A stretch of DNA of 64,000 nucleotides. Source: a virus. Within the stretch, counting starts at the first letter, position 1, and each line of letters opens with the position of its first letter. The translations under genes were made by a program, and so were the position numbers. The notes under the pieces are model-generated. The model saw only the letters and a list, made by a program, of their open reading frames with translations. It was not told the origin of the DNA and did not search any database. The DNA lies in IMG/VR virus record IMGVR_UViG_3300042691_021876, positions 32,001 through 96,000 of that record. The stretch is one strand, 5' to 3'. Below, piece after piece: positions 10,316-52,237 of this stretch.

Positions 10316-11261
10316 AGATATCTGAAATAAGGAAAATAGATTTGATTCCTCCTTGAAAGTTTAAGGGCGCTTTCCCTTCCCCTCCTCCGGACGTTTGATA
10401 TCTGATACCAGGATTAATTGAATCTGATAACATTTCTACAAGTTTGTCCATTACAGAGATTTTCTGTAAACTCCAAGTAAAAGATTCTTGAACTGCTCTA
10501 TCATATGAAGTTTGGTTTAATACTTTCCAATCACTAAATGAAAACGGAGCATACTTAATAAATGTTTTATCAAATGTTTGTCCTGCTTGTTGTTTTTGTT
10601 TAATGAAGTTTTTGATGAATGACATAATACCAAGAGATGGCAAATAGATTTTGAAGTTCTCACCATTTTTCATTTGAATGTGAAAAGATTGATCTTCAGC
10701 ATTGTAATACTTCATGATTCTTTCATCAGGATTAAAATAATCCAATGAATCTTTAGTTACTTCAATTTTTTGGTCTGCGCCATCTTCATCAGATACACTT
10801 ACAAATAAACGGTTCTCGCCATTCTTAAATGTATAATCACGCACTGCAAAGATTAGGTAAAAACGGTCAATTTCTAAAAGATCTTTATAAGTACCAGGTT
10901 TTCCAGGCACTTTAATTCTAACACATTTTTCCATGATAAAGTTAAGCATATCATCTACACCTAATAAGTCATTATCATCGATTGTTGACCAGTGACGGAT
11001 TTCTGAAACTGTTGCTGCTCTTAAAGCAACTTGTGTTCCAGCTCTGTAAAACATACCTTGTGAAGGTAGAGATTCCATTGGCATATTCTTCCAGCCAATT
11101 TCTGCTGCTAACACTTCATCATCTTCATATTCTACAAATTTCTGTGCTTTACCAATAATAGCCGGTTTAGCTTCTTCGGTAATAGCTTGTTCTTCTTGTT
11201 GAACTAAAAGAGCCGCTTCTTTTTCAAGTAGATCTTTTACATTCTCTGTTTCTTGTGACAT
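10299..11261 (-). CDS. gp26-like baseplate hub / tail assembly chaperone
   Basis: LPSQGMFY..., DLLEIDRFYLIFAVRDYT pattern; between tube and tape measure; start moved to ATG at 11261 because the late motif lies at 11288-11295. Confidence 0.6.
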   Translation of the reverse strand: MSQETENVKDLLEKEAALLVQQEEQAITEEAKPAIIGKAQKFVEYEDDEVLAAEIGWKNMPMESLPSQGMFYRAGTQVALRAATVSEIRHWSTIDDNDLLGVDDMLNFIMEKCVRIKVPGKPGTYKDLLEIDRFYLIFAVRDYTFKNGENRLFVSVSDEDGADQKIEVTKDSLDYFNPDERIMKYYNAEDQSFHIQMKNGENFKIYLPSLGIMSFIKNFIKQKQQAGQTFDKTFIKYAPFSFSDWKVLNQTSYDRAVQESFTWSLQKISVMDKLVEMLSDSINPGIRYQTSGGGEGKAPLNFQGGIKSIFLISDIFDELV

Positions 11262-22968: not shown

Positions 22969-23439
22969 TTATTTTAATTGTTTTATTCTTGACCTTAACG
23001 CAGCAACCGCAGTTTCAAAATCATTAAATAATGGAACGTTAAATCTATGACAAACTATTTCAACATTACCTTTTCTCCAGAATCCGTCCGGACAGCAAAC
23101 TATTAGTCTATTACTATTAGCATGTAATCCTAATTCCAATAAAGTAATTGGTGATTTAGATTCTGGTAAGATGTTCATAAAGATTATATCAGCTTCTTCC
23201 AATTTGTCCATTTCCCAATTTACTTGACCATTAAACTCTGGATTAGTAGCTCTTTGTTCCCATGAAGAATCCCATTCATCTCTTCGAGGATTAAAGAATG
23301 TTACTTCACAATCATCGAGTTTATTCTGTACCTCTGTCTGCCAATCAACAGACGAACCCATATCTATGGAACCAGCTAAAAAAATCCCAGGGTAATTGTC
23401 CTGGGATTGATTAGAGCTAGTAGGTTTAATTACTTGCAT
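22969..23439 (-). CDS. nucleoside 2-deoxyribosyltransferase-like protein
   Basis: IFLAGSIDMG..DWQ, FNPRR, QVNWE, SPITLLELGL, GFWRKGNV. Confidence 0.8.
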   Translation of the reverse strand: MQVIKPTSSNQSQDNYPGIFLAGSIDMGSSVDWQTEVQNKLDDCEVTFFNPRRDEWDSSWEQRATNPEFNGQVNWEMDKLEEADIIFMNILPESKSPITLLELGLHANSNRLIVCCPDGFWRKGNVEIVCHRFNVPLFNDFETAVAALRSRIKQLK

Positions 23440-24943
23440 TAGTCAATTCCATTATTTTAGCTCTGATTGCAGTCAAAGTAGTTTGGTTATAGAAGTTTCC
23501 GTTTTCATATATTGTTTGTAATACTCCCGTGTTCTCTTCTTCAGCAGAACATTGTGTTTTTACAGTGTATACACCGTTTTCTTCAATCACAGCACATTTA
23601 CCTTTTAATGATTTTTTAGTACCATCATCAGTTATTGGTTCTTTATAGATGTCAATCCCTTTTCCGTTATTCTCAAACCAAGCACCTTTTGCAGCGTACC
23701 CAAAAGTATCACGTGTAGTGAATTGGTATGTAAATGAACCTACACCTAAAACAATATTAGTTGAAGCAAATCCTTTAGCTTCTAATCTTGTATAGATTTC
23801 AATTTGACGGTCAAGTGTAATTGAATCTCCATAGATTGCTCCAATATGTGGGTCTAATACTTTGTAACCTTGAGCATTAATAGTACCGCCAAAGATATCC
23901 CAAAGTAATTCAATTACTCCTTTTTCAGCGGAATCCACGTTTTCATCGTATGGATTTTGTTCAGCATTCCAGCTTTTACCACAGATGATATCTACTGGGT
24001 CACCAGAGTCAGGACGAATTACAAGTTTACCATCACGTGACATGATTTGATCTTTGTTTGCTGGTAAATACTCAGTAATTAATTTCCATAGGTCAAAGGT
24101 ATCCGCTACGATAGAAAGGATTCCTTTATCAAATTCTGTTAACCAATCGGATATCATTTGTTGCTCACCTACGGTAAAAATTTTGGTAGTTGAGACAGAG
24201 TGCTCAGAAGCATTTACTGAAGCTATGCAAACTTCATCCTCAGATTCATCATAGAAATAACGGGCAGCTGGAATGACCACGATTGAGTCAGAACCCATAA
24301 AAGAAAAGGCGTGTCCAAGACCAGAAGATAAACTATCCCAAGGAGATAATCCACGAGCTGAGAAATCATGGCATAAGTAAGGAATTAACCAAGCATTTTC
24401 AGGGTCAGTTTTAGTTACCCATTTTACAAGGTTTCTTTTATACTGTAATGCAATAGTTGCAGAAGTAGCTGGTTTCCAAGCTAAAGATGAGATAATAGTT
24501 TCAAGATATAATGTTAACCAAGCAAAGCCAGGTACAGTGTTAATGAAAGTCATATGAGGAATATTTGCATCGGTCTCAATTCCTTCAGGTAAGGCTTTGA
24601 TTTTAATAGGCAAGTATCCTAAATCGTGTAGTGCTTCAAAGTGCGAAGCATCGTATGGCATACCTAAGTATTTTGCCATGTCAGTTCCAAATTTGGTTGC
24701 AGTTTCTCGTGGCATGCTAAAGAAATTCTCTTGCCATTCAGCATGTAACCAACGAACAGTTAATTGATGACCAATGGAAAGAATTTTGTCAATTCCTTTT
24801 GGTGCATGTTTTGTACTTCTTGGGATCCAAGTTCCGTATAAGAAATCCGTGCCTGGGGCAAGCATTCTTTTATGACCAACTTTATATCCGTCAGAATAAT
24901 AAGGAGCAGGTGCTCTAAAAGTCTTTTGTAATTTAGATAACAT
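23426..24943 (-). CDS. nicotinamide phosphoribosyltransferase-family protein (NAMPT / Namat-like)
   Basis: SDGYKVGH, HDFSARG, ASEHSV, SIVADTFD, VIRPDSGDP, IYGDSIT, GVGSFTYQ..TRDT. Confidence 0.9.
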   Translation of the reverse strand: MLSKLQKTFRAPAPYYSDGYKVGHKRMLAPGTDFLYGTWIPRSTKHAPKGIDKILSIGHQLTVRWLHAEWQENFFSMPRETATKFGTDMAKYLGMPYDASHFEALHDLGYLPIKIKALPEGIETDANIPHMTFINTVPGFAWLTLYLETIISSLAWKPATSATIALQYKRNLVKWVTKTDPENAWLIPYLCHDFSARGLSPWDSLSSGLGHAFSFMGSDSIVVIPAARYFYDESEDEVCIASVNASEHSVSTTKIFTVGEQQMISDWLTEFDKGILSIVADTFDLWKLITEYLPANKDQIMSRDGKLVIRPDSGDPVDIICGKSWNAEQNPYDENVDSAEKGVIELLWDIFGGTINAQGYKVLDPHIGAIYGDSITLDRQIEIYTRLEAKGFASTNIVLGVGSFTYQFTTRDTFGYAAKGAWFENNGKGIDIYKEPITDDGTKKSLKGKCAVIEENGVYTVKTQCSAEEENTGVLQTIYENGNFYNQTTLTAIRAKIMELTNASN

Positions 24944-24970
24944 AATTTATATTTGTTTTAAATTAATAGT

Positions 24971-25027
24971 TAAAATTAACCAAAATAAAGATACTAAGCA
25001 AATATTTTGGTGCGAAGTTATTAACAA
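24971..25027 (-). promoter_or_regulatory. early-type promoter (TTGTTAATAAC box, TTTG, TAATTTTA)
   Basis: conserved box with -33/-7-like elements. Confidence 0.65.
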
Positions 25028-25501
25028 TTATAAAAGTTCTTGTTTAACTATTGTAATTGCTTGGCCTAAAAGATTAAGACCTTTCCAACACATTGGATAC
25101 TCAACATTAGGATCGTCTTCAGCCATTCCTATACCCCAGATATTATCAAGTGGTGATGCCTCAACCATGATTCTTTTACCTGTAAGCATTAATGCAGCTT
25201 TAAGATCAGGATTTTGTTTAAACTTAAAATAGTTTCCTTTGATTACAATGCTTAGGCAAACTTTATCCCAAACACTTTTGTCAAAGTTTTTAATCATACG
25301 GCCATATTTCTTTTGCTCTCTTGGATTAGATTCTTCCATGATAAGTTTAGCAATTTCCGTATCACCAAATGTTAAGGCTTTTTGGTGCATCATGTATTGT
25401 TCACATGAATTGTAAGTGATACCGTCAATAGTCATATTTGCTTTATGCCATTGAGAGTAAATACCACTCCAGAAGAATACGTATTTATTTGTGGTTTTCA
25501 T
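25028..25501 (-). CDS. NADAR (YbiA-like) family protein
   Basis: FFW..YSQW, EQYMMHQKA..FGD, KKYGR, KFKQN, VEASPLDNIWGIG, GLNLLG. Confidence 0.9.
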   Translation of the reverse strand: MKTTNKYVFFWSGIYSQWHKANMTIDGITYNSCEQYMMHQKALTFGDTEIAKLIMEESNPREQKKYGRMIKNFDKSVWDKVCLSIVIKGNYFKFKQNPDLKAALMLTGKRIMVEASPLDNIWGIGMAEDDPNVEYPMCWKGLNLLGQAITIVKQELL

Positions 25502-26142
25502 TATTGTGGTAAGATTACGATTGTTACTTTACAATCAATTAATTCTGTTTGAATAATTTTTTTGATTCTTTCCCAATCGCCACCAGCAAGACCAGCGCCA
25601 ATTTTAGGAAGACCTATATGAAGTCCTTTAAACTCAACATTTAGTTTTCTCATTACGATTGTGATTGCTTCATAATCCACGGGTTTGGAAACGCCGTCTA
25701 TATGATTCTTGCCATAACGATATTGTGTATAGGCATTCACAACAGTTAATTCAGGATCATTGTTAATGTTAGAATCCAATTTGCGATTCCATAGACCACC
25801 TTTAGATATTACAAAGGTTTCATAGTCAATGCAACCTAATTTGTTTATGCTTGGACCTTTAAGTTCTAAGTTAAATTTATCACAGCCAAAAGCTTGAGCC
25901 ATATGTGGAGCAATACCAGCTGCCATAGTTGAATGACAATTACAGCCATGAACAATTACATTAAAAGCACCTTCTTTAGCTAAGGCTATAAGATCACCGG
26001 TAACTTCAGAATATCTTGCTTTTAGTTTTGCTTCTTCTAATACATTAGTGATTGGCGATTCTTGGCATGGATCTATTTTACATTCACCATTACAAGGACC
26101 GTGTTCACAATACCAACAGTGGAGTCCAATACCTATAGCCAT
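25501..26142 (-). CDS. macro domain protein with N-terminal Cys/His cluster
   Basis: GDLI..IVHGCNCHSTMAAGIA, VVNAYTQY, PKIGAGLAGGDW. Confidence 0.88.
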   Translation of the reverse strand: MAIGIGLHCWYCEHGPCNGECKIDPCQESPITNVLEEAKLKARYSEVTGDLIALAKEGAFNVIVHGCNCHSTMAAGIAPHMAQAFGCDKFNLELKGPSINKLGCIDYETFVISKGGLWNRKLDSNINNDPELTVVNAYTQYRYGKNHIDGVSKPVDYEAITIVMRKLNVEFKGLHIGLPKIGAGLAGGDWERIKKIIQTELIDCKVTIVILPQ

Positions 26143-27044
26143 TAGAATACGTTATAAACGTTAAGTTTATGTAATTCATTATCGTTTTGGATTGAAAACT
26201 CTGAATCATTTTCAGGACGGATTGAATTAGTTGTGTAAATTGCATCAAACAATTTGTTTAGTTCCTTTAGACCGCTTGAAAAGATACCGTGTGTGATTAC
26301 TAATGTTATAGTATCATTAAATATTTCTTGTGGTCGGATTTCACGAATTGCTTTTGCTAATTCAATAAAGGTTCTACCGCCATCACAAATATCATCAACA
26401 ATAACAAAGTTTTGTGGACCTGCTCCGTAATTACTTTGTGGTATTTCAGTATGAGTAATCTTACCGGTTTTAACATCACGGTGCTTATTTGCCACAATAA
26501 TTTTATCAATACTGAATGTTTCAGCCACATGATAAATTTTCTTTAATGCACCAGCATCAGGAGAAACAAGATGTAAGGTTTCTCGAGCGCCGTTTTTATT
26601 ATCAATCTTGGTTAAAGCAAACTTAACTAACCCTGTGTTATCAGTTTTCTTGAAGTTATTTAAACATGCTTCAAGAACATCGGAATGAGGATCCAATACA
26701 TGCACCTCTGAAAAATTCTGAGAGTTAATGATTGGGCAAATAACAGTCTTAAGGTAATTTGTAGAACCTATTAAGAATTTTCTATCAGATCTTGCACCTA
26801 AGAAATACGGAACATACAGACTAACAGATTTTGCACCAAGTTCAAGTAATGCTTGGTTTGCACAAATGATTAATTCCAAATCACGAAATGAGTTTAATCT
26901 TGATTTGATTTGAACTGATTTGATTTTGTTATTAAAAGAATACCCACTTGGCTCAATCGTAATAGATTGTTGACCGTCAGGAAAGCTTGAGATTTTAAAT
27001 CCAATTTCGGATTTTGTAGAATCTGCTAAATTAAGTATGTTCAT
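26142..27044 (-). CDS. ribose-phosphate pyrophosphokinase-family protein (Prs / Adps-like)
   Basis: FPDGQ, PYFLGARSDR, DPHS, VSPDAGA, IVDDICDGGRTF, THGIFS; start moved to ATG at 27044 because the longer frame overlaps the promoter. Confidence 0.88.
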   Translation of the reverse strand: MNILNLADSTKSEIGFKISSFPDGQQSITIEPSGYSFNNKIKSVQIKSRLNSFRDLELIICANQALLELGAKSVSLYVPYFLGARSDRKFLIGSTNYLKTVICPIINSQNFSEVHVLDPHSDVLEACLNNFKKTDNTGLVKFALTKIDNKNGARETLHLVSPDAGALKKIYHVAETFSIDKIIVANKHRDVKTGKITHTEIPQSNYGAGPQNFVIVDDICDGGRTFIELAKAIREIRPQEIFNDTITLVITHGIFSSGLKELNKLFDAIYTTNSIRPENDSEFSIQNDNELHKLNVYNVF

Positions 27045-27064
27045 ATTATTTTTATTTAGATAGT

Positions 27065-27121
27065 TAAAATTAACCAATTGTTTTCACAATGGCAAACTTT
27101 AATCTAATAAGTTATTAACAA
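27065..27121 (-). promoter_or_regulatory. early-type promoter (TTGTTAATAAC box, TTTG-N20-TAATTTTA)
   Basis: conserved motif and spacing. Confidence 0.65.
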
Positions 27122-27124
27122 CTA

Positions 27125-27385
27125 TTATTCAGCTATTACATAATTCCATTTTTGCATTAGCTCTTCAACTCTTGAGTCAAGCTGTTTACGTAAGATTGCT
27201 AATTCATTAACCATTGGAAGCGGTCCTTGCCAAACTCGTTCTCTTTGTAAATCACCTTCTCTGTCTATAAAATAGATATACATTCTCGGTCCAATTTTTG
27301 CAATGTCAAATTTCTTTGGACTTAATGCTGGATATTTTTCAGCAATAAATTTCTTAAGGTCTTTTGCCGTGTTCATTATCTTCAA
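27125..27385 (-). CDS. hypothetical protein
   Basis: 86-aa ORF overlapping the upstream gene. Confidence 0.6.
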   Translation of the reverse strand: MKIMNTAKDLKKFIAEKYPALSPKKFDIAKIGPRMYIYFIDREGDLQRERVWQGPLPMVNELAILRKQLDSRVEELMQKWNYVIAE

Positions 27386-31834: not shown

Positions 31835-32358
31835 CGCGTTACTTTAAATAGGAAATCTTCTGTTACAATAATAAATTTATAACCTATAGATTCAGCATGT
31901 GCTTTAGCAGCTGAAAATTTTGCAGTATTAATGATAAATGTTTTAGCTGCATAGTTAAAGTTCTTTAACTTTTGCATTGTTTGGATTCCTTCAAACACTG
32001 GTTTCTTTAAAGATTCTTCAGGTTTAACTTCTACTAGATAATCGATTTCTTGACCGTCTTTAATACCTCTCATGTAAAAGTCAATGTAATAGTCATGTTC
32101 CTTTCCATCTATAGGACTTATGTACTTGATAGGAAATGGCTCTGATGACCACTTCAAGACATTTGTTGAATCATCACAATACCTACAAAACTTATATTCC
32201 CAGGACGAGCGATAGATGATCTTTGTGGGATCACCTATATACTTGTCTGGGTTATTAAGAGTGTAATAGCCTTGGCGGAATTTGCTTTTGGCCGTAGGCT
32301 TGTTTGATTTTATATCAGATGCCATAGAAATTTTCGTTGTTGATAGAAACTTGGTCAA
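31831..32358 (-). CDS. head completion nuclease (T4 gp4-like, TnsA-type endonuclease)
   Basis: NPDKYIGDPTKIIYRSSWE, WSSE, YYIDFY, VEVKP, AKFSAA..F.IVTE. Confidence 0.88.
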   Translation of the reverse strand: MTKFLSTTKISMASDIKSNKPTAKSKFRQGYYTLNNPDKYIGDPTKIIYRSSWEYKFCRYCDDSTNVLKWSSEPFPIKYISPIDGKEHDYYIDFYMRGIKDGQEIDYLVEVKPEESLKKPVFEGIQTMQKLKNFNYAAKTFIINTAKFSAAKAHAESIGYKFIIVTEDFLFKVTR

Positions 32359-50319: not shown

Positions 50320-52161
50320 TTAGAATATCTCTGCGTAAGATAAAATTTTAACACCTTTAGATTGAGCTGTCTTAATCTTATTACTTAAATTATTTACGTC
50401 CTCAACAAATAAAACTTTTGCACTTGACATACCTACATGGTGATATCCTTTTTCTTTAGCAGCTTTAACAAATTCGTCCTTGGTTTTAAATCCTGCAGAT
50501 TTTGGAGAACCACTCATCTCAAACGGAATTGAGTCGGCGGCAACCTGCTCTGGAAGAATAATGTTTACGTATTTACTAACAGCGGTAACTATTTCTTCAT
50601 AACGTTTTCTTTTAGATCCACCTGGCTCAAACCCAGCAATTACATCCTTTTGTAATCCGTGGAATGAGTGTGGTAATCCTGTAAGGTAATTTTCTAATTG
50701 CTTAGCAACCGTATGACCCATGCCGTCAATACCCATACACAAGATTAATTTCATTGGATGAATATCCTTAATCTTGGAGATTTCCTTAAACATATTATCC
50801 ACAGTTTTACTGTCTTTAACACCATTTGCTATTAGGATTGCTTTATTAAATTTAGTAGGGTCAAGCAAATCTAATGGATTTCTAAAACCAGCTTCCCATA
50901 TAGAATTAATCATTGCACCACCTACACCATCAAGTCCTAATACATTAATACCAGTATGGAATTTATTTTGTGCTTTTGCAGAGCAGTCAGGATTAACACA
51001 AATTAAATGTACTTCCTGTACTTCTAGTTTTGCCCCACACTTACAGTCAACAGGATGATCCAAAACAGTATTTGGTGATGGCGTAATAACTCGTAAGATT
51101 TGTGGAATAATATCACCGGCCTTAGCGATTGCTACAGTTGCCCCAACCATTGCACCAGATCCTTTAATAAATCCGATGTTGAATAGAGATGCTCGAGAAA
51201 CCATTGAACCGTCAAGATCCACAGGTTCCATTATTGCAACTGGAGTAACTCTTCCAGTTTTACCCCACTGCCACGAGATATCTACGATTTTTGTTATAGC
51301 CTCCTTAGGTGGAAATTTAATTGCGATTGCCCAATTAGGATCATGTGAATTTTCACCAAGTTTGGCACGAAACTCAACAGGAGCCTTGATAACGAATCCA
51401 TCGAGCTGGTAATCTGAAATAGTTTCACGGTAATTTTTCATTACACCGTAAACATGATTAAAGTTATTTGGACCTAACTCAAAATCTATAAATGTAGAAC
51501 GGTGTAGTAATCCAGAAATATCATTTGGATTAAGATATGTAATATCACTGTCAATTTGCTGGCGAGCTTCAACAGCAATAAAATCCATTTCACTAATAGT
51601 TTCTGGTGAATTATCATCACGGTTTAAAACGCCGGCAACAAAGTTACGGGGATTTTTAAAATCATTTGCATATTTAGTGTTAAACGTTGACATTTTGATG
51701 CAAACTTCACCGCGTATTTCTACGGTACCTTCTTGAGATATTGTTTCAGGAACATTATGTTTTACTTTGTCAGTAATATCACGCCCTTTAGTTCCATTAC
51801 CTCGAGAAAGGATTTGAACAAGTTTTCCGTTTGAGTAGATTACGTTTGCAGCGTTTCCGTCAAATTTTGGAGTTGCTTCAAAAAAACGAGCTCCAGTATT
51901 TACCATCCAACGGTTTGCAGATTCAGTAGGAGGTGTACCGTCAGCGGCAGCTTGGTATTTTCCTAATGATAACATTGGAGATGGGTGAGAATATTTTGCC
52001 TTACGATCATCAGCACCTACAATGTAAGGAGCGTCGGAACCCATATTAATTAGTTCCTGTTCCATACGGTCAAATTCATCGTCAGACATAATAGGTTCAC
52101 CAAGATAATAAGATTCCTTGGCTTGAAAATAAAGCTGTTCTAAGTCAAAGCGTTGGTTCAT
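50320..52161 (-). CDS. ligA: NAD+-dependent DNA ligase
   Basis: YY.GEPIMSDDEFD, PKFDG, SRGNG..G.DIT, EIRGE, NPRNFVAG, DGFVIK, WAIAIKF, AGDIIPQI, Zn finger, BRCT-like tail. Confidence 0.93.
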   Translation of the reverse strand: MNQRFDLEQLYFQAKESYYLGEPIMSDDEFDRMEQELINMGSDAPYIVGADDRKAKYSHPSPMLSLGKYQAAADGTPPTESANRWMVNTGARFFEATPKFDGNAANVIYSNGKLVQILSRGNGTKGRDITDKVKHNVPETISQEGTVEIRGEVCIKMSTFNTKYANDFKNPRNFVAGVLNRDDNSPETISEMDFIAVEARQQIDSDITYLNPNDISGLLHRSTFIDFELGPNNFNHVYGVMKNYRETISDYQLDGFVIKAPVEFRAKLGENSHDPNWAIAIKFPPKEAITKIVDISWQWGKTGRVTPVAIMEPVDLDGSMVSRASLFNIGFIKGSGAMVGATVAIAKAGDIIPQILRVITPSPNTVLDHPVDCKCGAKLEVQEVHLICVNPDCSAKAQNKFHTGINVLGLDGVGGAMINSIWEAGFRNPLDLLDPTKFNKAILIANGVKDSKTVDNMFKEISKIKDIHPMKLILCMGIDGMGHTVAKQLENYLTGLPHSFHGLQKDVIAGFEPGGSKRKRYEEIVTAVSKYVNIILPEQVAADSIPFEMSGSPKSAGFKTKDEFVKAAKEKGYHHVGMSSAKVLFVEDVNNLSNKIKTAQSKGVKILSYAEIF

Positions 52162-52180
52162 ATAGTTTTTATTTATAGAG

Positions 52181-52237
52181 CAAAATTAACCAAAAAATCC
52201 CACAAATAAAAATTTATGGGACTAAAGTTATTAACAA
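52181..52237 (-). promoter_or_regulatory. early-type promoter (TTGTTAATAAC box, TAATTTTG)
   Basis: exact TAnnTTTG element at conserved spacing from the box. Confidence 0.7.

Follow-up and report, generated by a model that had tools for sequence, protein, structure and literature searches.

A probable NARP1-AP-type NAD+ reconstitution operon with two putative accessory N-glycosidases in an uncultured phage

Depletion of nicotinamide adenine dinucleotide (NAD+) is among the commonest bacterial anti-phage strategies, and the closest described relative of the phage locus analyzed here is the NARP1-AP operon of Vibrio phage Gary, which was tested in vivo and yielded the purified Adpp protein (Osterman 2026, bioRxiv 10.64898/2026.01.28.702374). 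That work, published in January 2026, extended the NARP1 pair Adps and Namat with Adpp, a Poa1p-like macro-domain phosphatase found in 15% of NARP1 operons, the set named NARP1-AP; Adpp dephosphorylates ADP-ribose 1''-phosphate (ADPR-1''-P), the product of aRES defense, and makes it usable by NARP1 (bioRxiv 10.64898/2026.01.28.702374). A further accessory, RyDEP, which the mycobacteriophage DyoEdafos encodes inside its NARP1 operon, is a RyR-domain O-glycosidase for 2'/3' cyclic ADP-ribose (cADPR) that converts an NAD+-derived molecule into linear ADP-ribose (ADPR) for Adps and Namat (bioRxiv 10.64898/2026.05.28.727677). In bacteria, NrtR regulates NAD genes in response to ADP-ribose, and nrtR-prs-nadV operons carry a second Prs that was left unexplained (Rodionov 2008, PMC2330246). 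NARP1, NARP1-AP, bacterial NARP1 and, in general terms, the joint occurrence of Macro, NADAR and SLOG domains in phages have already been published. Here we analyze a 64,000-nt stretch of viral DNA, referred to as the window (positions 32,001 to 96,000 of IMG/VR record IMGVR_UViG_3300042691_021876), and conclude with a probability of roughly 0.6 that five of its genes form a NARP1-AP-type NAD+ reconstitution operon with two accessory N-glycosidases, a NADAR and a nucleoside deoxyribosyltransferase (NDT)-like protein, under one promoter class and with a probable Bacteroidota origin.

The gene block had been proposed in a sequence-only reading of this DNA, and open reading frames (ORFs) together with Pfam and PHROG matches confirmed both its content and its coordinates: five adjoining minus-strand genes at positions 22969–27121, in the order Adps-like, macro domain, NADAR, Namat-like and NDT-like (Table 1). 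The junctions are overlaps of 1 or 14 nt apart from one gap of 84 nt, and Adps and Namat lie 1.2 kb apart on one strand with the macro and NADAR genes between them and the same promoter motif ahead of each. As in phage Gary, the Adps, Poa1p-like macro and Namat genes occur in the same order, and the chemistry is presumably the same, from ADPR-1''-P through ADPR and ADPR pyrophosphate (ADPR-PP) to NAD+. Unlike the Gary operon, the window locus carries a YbiA-type NADAR gene between macro and Namat, a second promoter before Namat, a PF15891 gene after it and a Cys-rich N-terminal extension on the macro protein; NADAR and NDT genes are absent from the paper describing the Gary system. The arrangement also resembles the DyoEdafos operon in placing glycosidase genes within NARP1, but where RyDEP is an O-glycosidase, the NADAR and NDT folds of the window are expected to cut N-glycosidic bonds.

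We judged the identity of the core pair by score gaps, motifs and curated cut-offs, and active-site comparison sided with Adps and Namat over Prs and NadV, in agreement with the sequence-only reading. The window Adps aligns with Gary Adps at 34% identity (E 2e-38, 125 bits) and with any solved Prs at 53 bits at most, and the residues named by Liu et al. (R87, F92, H121, D161, K185, D212, D213, I214, C215 and D216) have counterparts at near-identical spacing in R96, F101, H131, D174, K198 and D228-D229-I-C-D232. It stays below threshold on curated Prs models, scoring 84.3 bits on TIGR01251 against a cut-off of 113 and falling far under the cut-off of every Prs equivalog model in NCBIfam. For the Namat-like protein, the best solved relatives are the SPbetaL1 Namat structures 9W5W and 9W5X (E 1e-118), with Nampt structures at 1e-42 to 1e-50, and identity to Gary Namat is 39% (E 5e-110). 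Lan et al. described a Namat-only clamp motif, GS-X-phi-X-phi-X-phi-TRD, in which the aromatics at positions 3 and 7 stack on the ADPR-PP adenine. The window protein reads GSFTYQFTTRD and fits this signature; across 150 related loci the motif occurs in nearly all full-length Adps-linked homologs, whereas NadM-linked Nampt proteins lack it and read GGALLQGINRD. By these sequence criteria, the pair is NARP1 and not Prs/NadV.

The same data bear on ordinary nicotinamide salvage, in which Prs would supply phosphoribosyl pyrophosphate (PRPP) for NadV to make nicotinamide mononucleotide (NMN), requiring an NMN adenylyltransferase from the host or from an unseen part of the phage genome. The Pfam, PHROG and NCBIfam names of the two proteins point that way, Namat retains some nicotinamide–PRPP activity in vitro, and a record that is a 37% fragment might have its adenylyltransferase gene elsewhere. 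The clamp motif, the Adps residues and the position of the Prs-like protein under all Prs cut-offs argue against this route. The sequence-only reading had reported no clear NMN adenylyltransferase in the window, and a search with the NMN adenylyltransferase-type family PF01467 found no match across the whole 106.5-kb record, which is about 37% complete. In three near-complete relatives (294–373 kb) the small nucleotidyltransferases are only RfaE/TagD-like, with no recognizable NMN adenylyltransferase. These results fit a pathway that has no need for that enzyme, and we regard ordinary salvage as very improbable.

The macro protein is, by sequence comparison, a Poa1p-like Adpp and a predicted ADPR-1''-P phosphatase of NARP1-AP. 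It shares 31% identity with the purified Gary Adpp (E 8e-14), and its matches include proteins from phages in Osterman 2026 Table S1 such as Pseudomonas phage SRT6. A profile of 25 homologs matched BT1257 at 1e-15 and Poa1p at 5e-10 over its full length, reached DarG at 1e-5 over positions 3–65 only, and ranked DarG below BT1257, SCO6735, Poa1p and TARG1. An H-G-C-N-C motif (H-x-C-N-C) aligns with Poa1p H23–N26, and the protein ends where the macro domain ends, leaving no DarT-binding domain. The structure model (predicted local distance difference test, pLDDT, 84) adopts a macro fold to which Poa1p-, TARG1- and DarG-like macro domains score alike and are not separable, and the class was therefore decided by profile-to-sequence comparison and the match to the tested Adpp rather than by fold search. 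As a separate observation, the first ~45 codons of the gene (26008–26142) encode a Cys-rich N-terminal extension (CWYCEHGPCNGECKIDPC), modeled with low confidence and common only to the closest relatives (L086, L008 and L003), which may be a small zinc-binding module.

These features of the macro protein speak against its assignment in the sequence-only reading as a DarG-type eraser, and they weigh on a broader explanation in which DarT2- or DarT1-type defenses modify phage DNA or proteins, the macro and NADAR proteins strip off the ADPR, and Adps and Namat recycle it. What that explanation draws from the macro protein is a fold about equally close to TARG1, DarG and Poa1p; homology to the tested Adpp, the full-length Poa1p match, the partial DarG alignment and the missing DarT-binding domain oppose it. 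The NADAR offers it more. ADP-ribosylated guanine (guanine-ADPr) is hydrolyzed in vitro by each NADAR subtype tested, YbiA and an oomycete member of the YbiA subfamily among them, and diverse phage NADARs counter DarTG1. Like AdfN (T4 gp30.3) and other anti-DarTG1 phage NADARs, the window protein is a stand-alone enzyme whose Glu/Lys catalytic pair is conserved (bioRxiv 10.1101/2024.07.11.602962). The position of E125 in PnNADAR, a solved oomycete NADAR, is occupied by Asp in DarT1-associated NADARs (DarG1) and by His in T4-type AdfN, and the AdfN study encountered a single phage NADAR with a distant relationship to the YbiA group (bioRxiv 10.1101/2024.07.11.602962). In contrast to both, the window NADAR keeps Glu (E114, in VEASPLD), passes TIGR02464 for YbiA-type proteins (143.2 bits, cut-off 73.7) and is encoded amid NAD+ salvage genes. 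Its residues E34, K41, E114, D119 and W122 align with PnNADAR E43, K50, E125, D130 and W133, and it has no DarG1-like N-terminal extension. From its sequence it is a Glu-bearing YbiA-type N-glycohydrolase, neither a His-type AdfN nor an Asp-type DarG1.

These traits also count against membership in the anti-DarT1 antitoxin family claimed earlier. In published tests E. coli YbiA removes guanine-ADPr in vitro yet gave cells no protection from DarT1. Moreover, the same NADAR clade occurs in NrtR-regulated salvage clusters on bacterial chromosomes, and the ADPR obtainable from a few modified bases is trivial against a depleted NAD+ pool. The NADAR could conceivably reverse ADP-ribosylation on DNA or protein, though this is not its best-supported reading, and such a role is unlikely for the macro protein; as an account of the operon we find the eraser explanation improbable.

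Transcription appears to be organized around a repeated sequence element. The two early-type promoters noted from sequence proved to be exact copies of one bipartite motif, a near-palindromic box TTGTTAATAACTT separated by a 31-nt spacer from TTGGTTAATTTT, with TTTGC at a fixed place in the spacer; promoter function is suggested by the sequence. The window holds three copies, shuffled sequences none and the 106.5-kb record five. The third window copy precedes an NAD-dependent DNA ligase gene, confirming that the ligase falls under the same promoter class, and the two further copies in the record (G000:6385–6440 and 10499–10554) stand before a T4 Rnl1-like RNA ligase and an AAA_33 kinase-like ORF. 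Together these genes resemble a small regulon for NAD supply and use and for RNA repair. We take TTTG...TAATTTTA to resemble the Bacteroidota −33 TTTG / −7 TAnnTTTG promoter, and the 9-bp palindrome GTTAATAAC within box 1 is a candidate operator. Scans for E. coli-type sigma-70 promoters and terminators performed no better than on shuffled sequence, and their predictions were dropped in favor of the repeated motif. The motif copies suggest two transcription units, Adps-macro-NADAR and Namat-NDT. The called Adps start, TTG at 27077, was rejected: this TTG forms the opening triplet of the second promoter box, and the alignment with Gary Adps begins at ATG 27044, which is therefore probably the true start. 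A G+C-rich hairpin of 9 bp with a T-run behind it (23383–23408, minus strand), 18 nt past the Namat stop and within the first NDT-like codons, may attenuate read-through into NDT, in a terminator scan that as a whole was at chance level.

Table 1. Coordinates of the operon genes, promoter motifs and NAD-dependent ligase in the window
Feature	Position	Strand	Remarks
Promoter P1	27066-27121	-	exact bipartite motif, ahead of Adps
Adps (Prs-like)	26142-27044 (called 26142-27077)	-	~300 aa; PF00156; phrog_619 4e-66
Adpp-like macro domain	25501-26142	-	Pfam Macro weak; phrog_335 'phosphatase' 2.8e-39
NADAR, YbiA-type	25028-25501	-	PF08719 1.5e-48
Promoter P2	24972-25027	-	exact bipartite motif, ahead of Namat
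Namat (NAMPT-like)	23426-24943	-	PF04095 3.5e-33; phrog_448 4e-159
NDT-like	22969-23439	-	PF15891 9.7e-34
NAD-dependent DNA ligase gene + motif	50320-52237	-	motif 52182-52237; ORF 50320-52161, 613 aa; PF01653, PF03120

The last gene of the block encodes a member of the NDT/DNPH1 (DrHyd) superfamily, as judged from its structure model. The sole close solved relative is 4MCJ, an uncharacterized Parabacteroides protein (E 2e-33), and the model (pLDDT 94.5) shows a flavodoxin-like NDT fold that matches 4MCJ with a template modeling score (TM) of 0.82; the next fold neighbors are YtoQ, nucleoside deoxyribosyltransferases, the CMP N-glycosidase MilB, DNPH1 and a retron effector. Among 38 homologs, E102 (in SPITLLELG), E76, R52, R53, R122 and four Trp residues are invariant, a set that would be in keeping with N-glycosidase activity toward a phosphorylated nucleotide. 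Motif resemblance suggests that E102 may be the equivalent of the NDT/DNPH1 nucleophile Glu after strand 4. Literature searches for PF15891, Nuc_deoxyri_tr2 or 4MCJ, and for deoxyribosyltransferase together with NARP, found nothing relevant, and the term YtoQ appeared in no title or abstract among the papers that its search listed.

A survey of synteny showed that the gene set is co-conserved in viral and bacterial loci, and that linkage of NADAR and NDT to NARP1 recurs in many gene orders. A Nampt-family gene lies within 8 kb in 34 of 59 distinct NDT-seeded viral loci and is directly adjacent in 24, and loci combining NDT with an Adps or Nampt-family gene show 30 different gene orders. Namat is present in 22 of 35 NADAR-seeded viral loci; NADAR homologs of at least 62% identity are always near a Namat or macro gene, and more distant homologs are not. 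Eight NDT-seeded viral loci, from a 72-locus set with duplicates still in, have the NARP2-type partner instead, a canonical Nampt beside NadM (NMN adenylyltransferase plus Nudix), often as NadM-Macro-NDT-Nampt. This order occurs in uncultured phages at L116:6474–9958 and also at L114, L115, L119, L120, L125, L132 and L152; in L119 the macro and NDT genes are separated by a small ORF with weak DprA/SLOG-like similarity. In the closest relatives (L007:7574–9466; L006, L041 and L084–86) a 631-aa SPFH/Band-7 protein is encoded between Namat and NDT-like, a gene not present in the window. The linkage of NDT to NAD genes is strong but not universal.

On bacterial chromosomes, NrtR-headed clusters of Bacteroidota (Aquimarina, Maribacter, Chitinophaga and others) account for 31 of 74 NDT-seeded loci, run NrtR-Adps-NDT-NADAR-...-Namat and contain homologs of at least four, and in some cases all five, genes of the phage block. 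Bacterial NrtR-prs-nadV operons (PMC2330246) and bacterial NARP1 (Lan 2026, PMC12774641) likewise set a second Prs paralog and a NadV-like gene beside an ADP-ribose-responsive regulator; the phage copy differs in lacking NrtR and in using a promoter class of its own. Further members of the bacterial clusters are KptA/Tpt1, DUF4291, another macro domain, a 2-oxoglutarate (2OG) oxygenase and a metallophosphatase, as in Aquimarina aggregata (L185:4286–12009), which reads NrtR-Adps-NDT-NADAR-DUF4291-Macro-Macro-KptA-2OG oxygenase-metallophosphatase-Namat. Of its two macro proteins the first is Poa1p-like and the second classical, its KptA is of the KptA/Tpt1 family and its oxygenase is 2OG-Fe(II)-dependent; in Maribacter algarum (L204) a SLOG/LOG-like gene follows NADAR. 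The NrtR-headed clusters look like an ADP-ribose salvage regulon in which DUF4291 would be another uncharacterized member.

Because all three core proteins match the Gary NARP1-AP operon and its tested enzymes, the core steps can be proposed by homology. Adpp would convert ADPR-1''-P, a product of RES-type NADases, into ADPR that enters the pathway, Adps would transfer pyrophosphate from ATP onto ADPR to form ADPR-PP, and Namat would combine ADPR-PP with nicotinamide to form NAD+. Genomic context suggests that the NADAR would free ADPR for Adps from N-glycosidic ADP-ribosyl or ribosyl-phosphate conjugates, and that the NDT-like protein would release nicotinamide by cutting the N-glycosidic bond of a pyridine nucleotide; we place it on the nicotinamide side because it is transcribed with Namat and tracks Namat or Nampt across phages. 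One candidate substrate is NMN, arising from the phage's own NAD-dependent ligase or from defenses that split NAD+ into adenosine monophosphate and NMN, which a phage without NMN adenylyltransferase could reuse only once it is hydrolyzed to nicotinamide; alternatively, the enzyme might open N-linked cADPR. A single early promoter class would turn on NAD+ supply, from both units, together with NAD+ use by the ligase, and the module probably originated from the NrtR-regulated, ADP-ribose-responsive Adps/Namat clusters of Bacteroidota. The sequence-only view of the operon as an ADP-ribose-to-NAD+ recycling unit is thus upheld for a core that matches tested NARP1-AP, while its second component, reversal of ADP-ribosylation on DNA and protein, is doubtful. 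More tentatively, and at somewhat less than even odds, the NADAR and NDT-like proteins may be dedicated feeders, each returning an unrecognized NAD+-derived immunity product to ADPR or nicotinamide, with N-glycosidic ADPR conjugates, N-linked cADPR signals and NMN from diphosphate-splitting defenses as candidate substrates.

Several observations weigh against a NARP1-AP-type operon with two accessory N-glycosidases. The activities of all five proteins are assigned by homology or context, and NCBIfam names the Namat-like protein through an older model, 'nicotinate phosphoribosyltransferase'. Clean-up of riboflavin intermediates is a known role of YbiA-type NADARs, and cleavage of guanine-ADPr in vitro by every tested NADAR would allow a DNA-directed role. 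An NMN nucleosidase would be redundant, even wasteful, in NARP2-type loci that encode an NMN adenylyltransferase, and the presence of NDT in NadM loci argues that the NMN idea is not the whole story. On the family tree the linkage is largely clade-structured, and shared ancestry inflates the counts. NDT-like homologs also occur without NAD genes nearby in Proteobacteria jumbo phages, cyanobacteria and planctomycetes, and those of the jumbo phages adjoin ligase, exonuclease or dCMP deaminase genes, so the basic activity of the family may be that of a general nucleotide N-glycosidase.

Some of these points converge on a different explanation, in which the NDT-like protein, possibly along with the NADAR, serves the nucleotide pool in general, for instance as a DNPH1- or MilB-like (deoxy)nucleoside monophosphate N-glycosidase, takes no part in NAD+ rebuilding and adjoins NAD genes through inherited gene order. 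It can claim the fold neighbors MilB, DNPH1 and NDTs, the many homologs among replication and nucleotide genes or in unrelated bacterial contexts, and linkage that is partly clade-structured. Examination of neighbors outside an NAD context, in cyanobacteria, Chloroflexota and Alphaproteobacteria and in phages of Ralstonia, Caulobacter, Stenotrophomonas and Xanthomonas, gave no consistent substrate clue. Inherited order sits poorly with linkage to three partner sets (NARP1, NadM-Nampt and NrtR-headed clusters) in 30 gene orders across phages and bacteria, and with an NDT gene that shares a transcription unit with Namat and overlaps its stop by 14 nt. We consider a general nucleotide-pool role quite unlikely and favor the NARP1-AP-type operon with accessory N-glycosidases.

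The source is a large, T4-like, uncultured phage that probably infects Bacteroidota. Its IMG/VR record (106.5 kb, CheckV completeness ~37%) has a G+C content of 32–38% and T4-like replication genes, with a gp44-type clamp loader as a near neighbor of the operon; the named phages closest to the NAMPT-like and macro genes infect Tenacibaculum and Cellulophaga, and a nucleotide search with the 4.1-kb block against isolated phages found no match. Homologs of aRES are given for Flavobacterium and Tenacibaculum (Table S2 of bioRxiv 10.64898/2026.01.28.702374), and the likely host group therefore possesses the matching defense. The stretch that separates the clamp loader from the operon, immediately upstream of the latter, holds two minus-strand ORFs, one with a KTSC domain (PF13619; 27354–27683) and one of 86 aa that matched no family (27125–27385).

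A literature search found no link between YbiA-type NADARs or PF15891 and NARP operons, and what appears new here is a NADAR clade and a PF15891 enzyme that recur beside NARP1 and in NrtR-headed clusters, with the NDT gene also beside NARP2-type pairs. Each earlier NARP1 accessory exposed a distinct host chemistry, RES-made ADPR-1''-P in the case of Adpp and Thoeris cADPR signals in the case of RyDEP, and the substrates of the NADAR and of the NDT-like protein, whose Pfam family has a solved structure but no known function, could reveal further non-canonical NAD+ breakage. If the two proteins are feeders, matching and possibly undiscovered non-canonical NAD+-cleaving defenses are predicted in Bacteroidota, and feeder enzymes would explain the role of NrtR-regulated Adps/Namat clusters in bacteria. 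The link to these clusters suggests both a source for the phage module and a purpose for the 'second Prs' of nrtR-prs-nadV operons.

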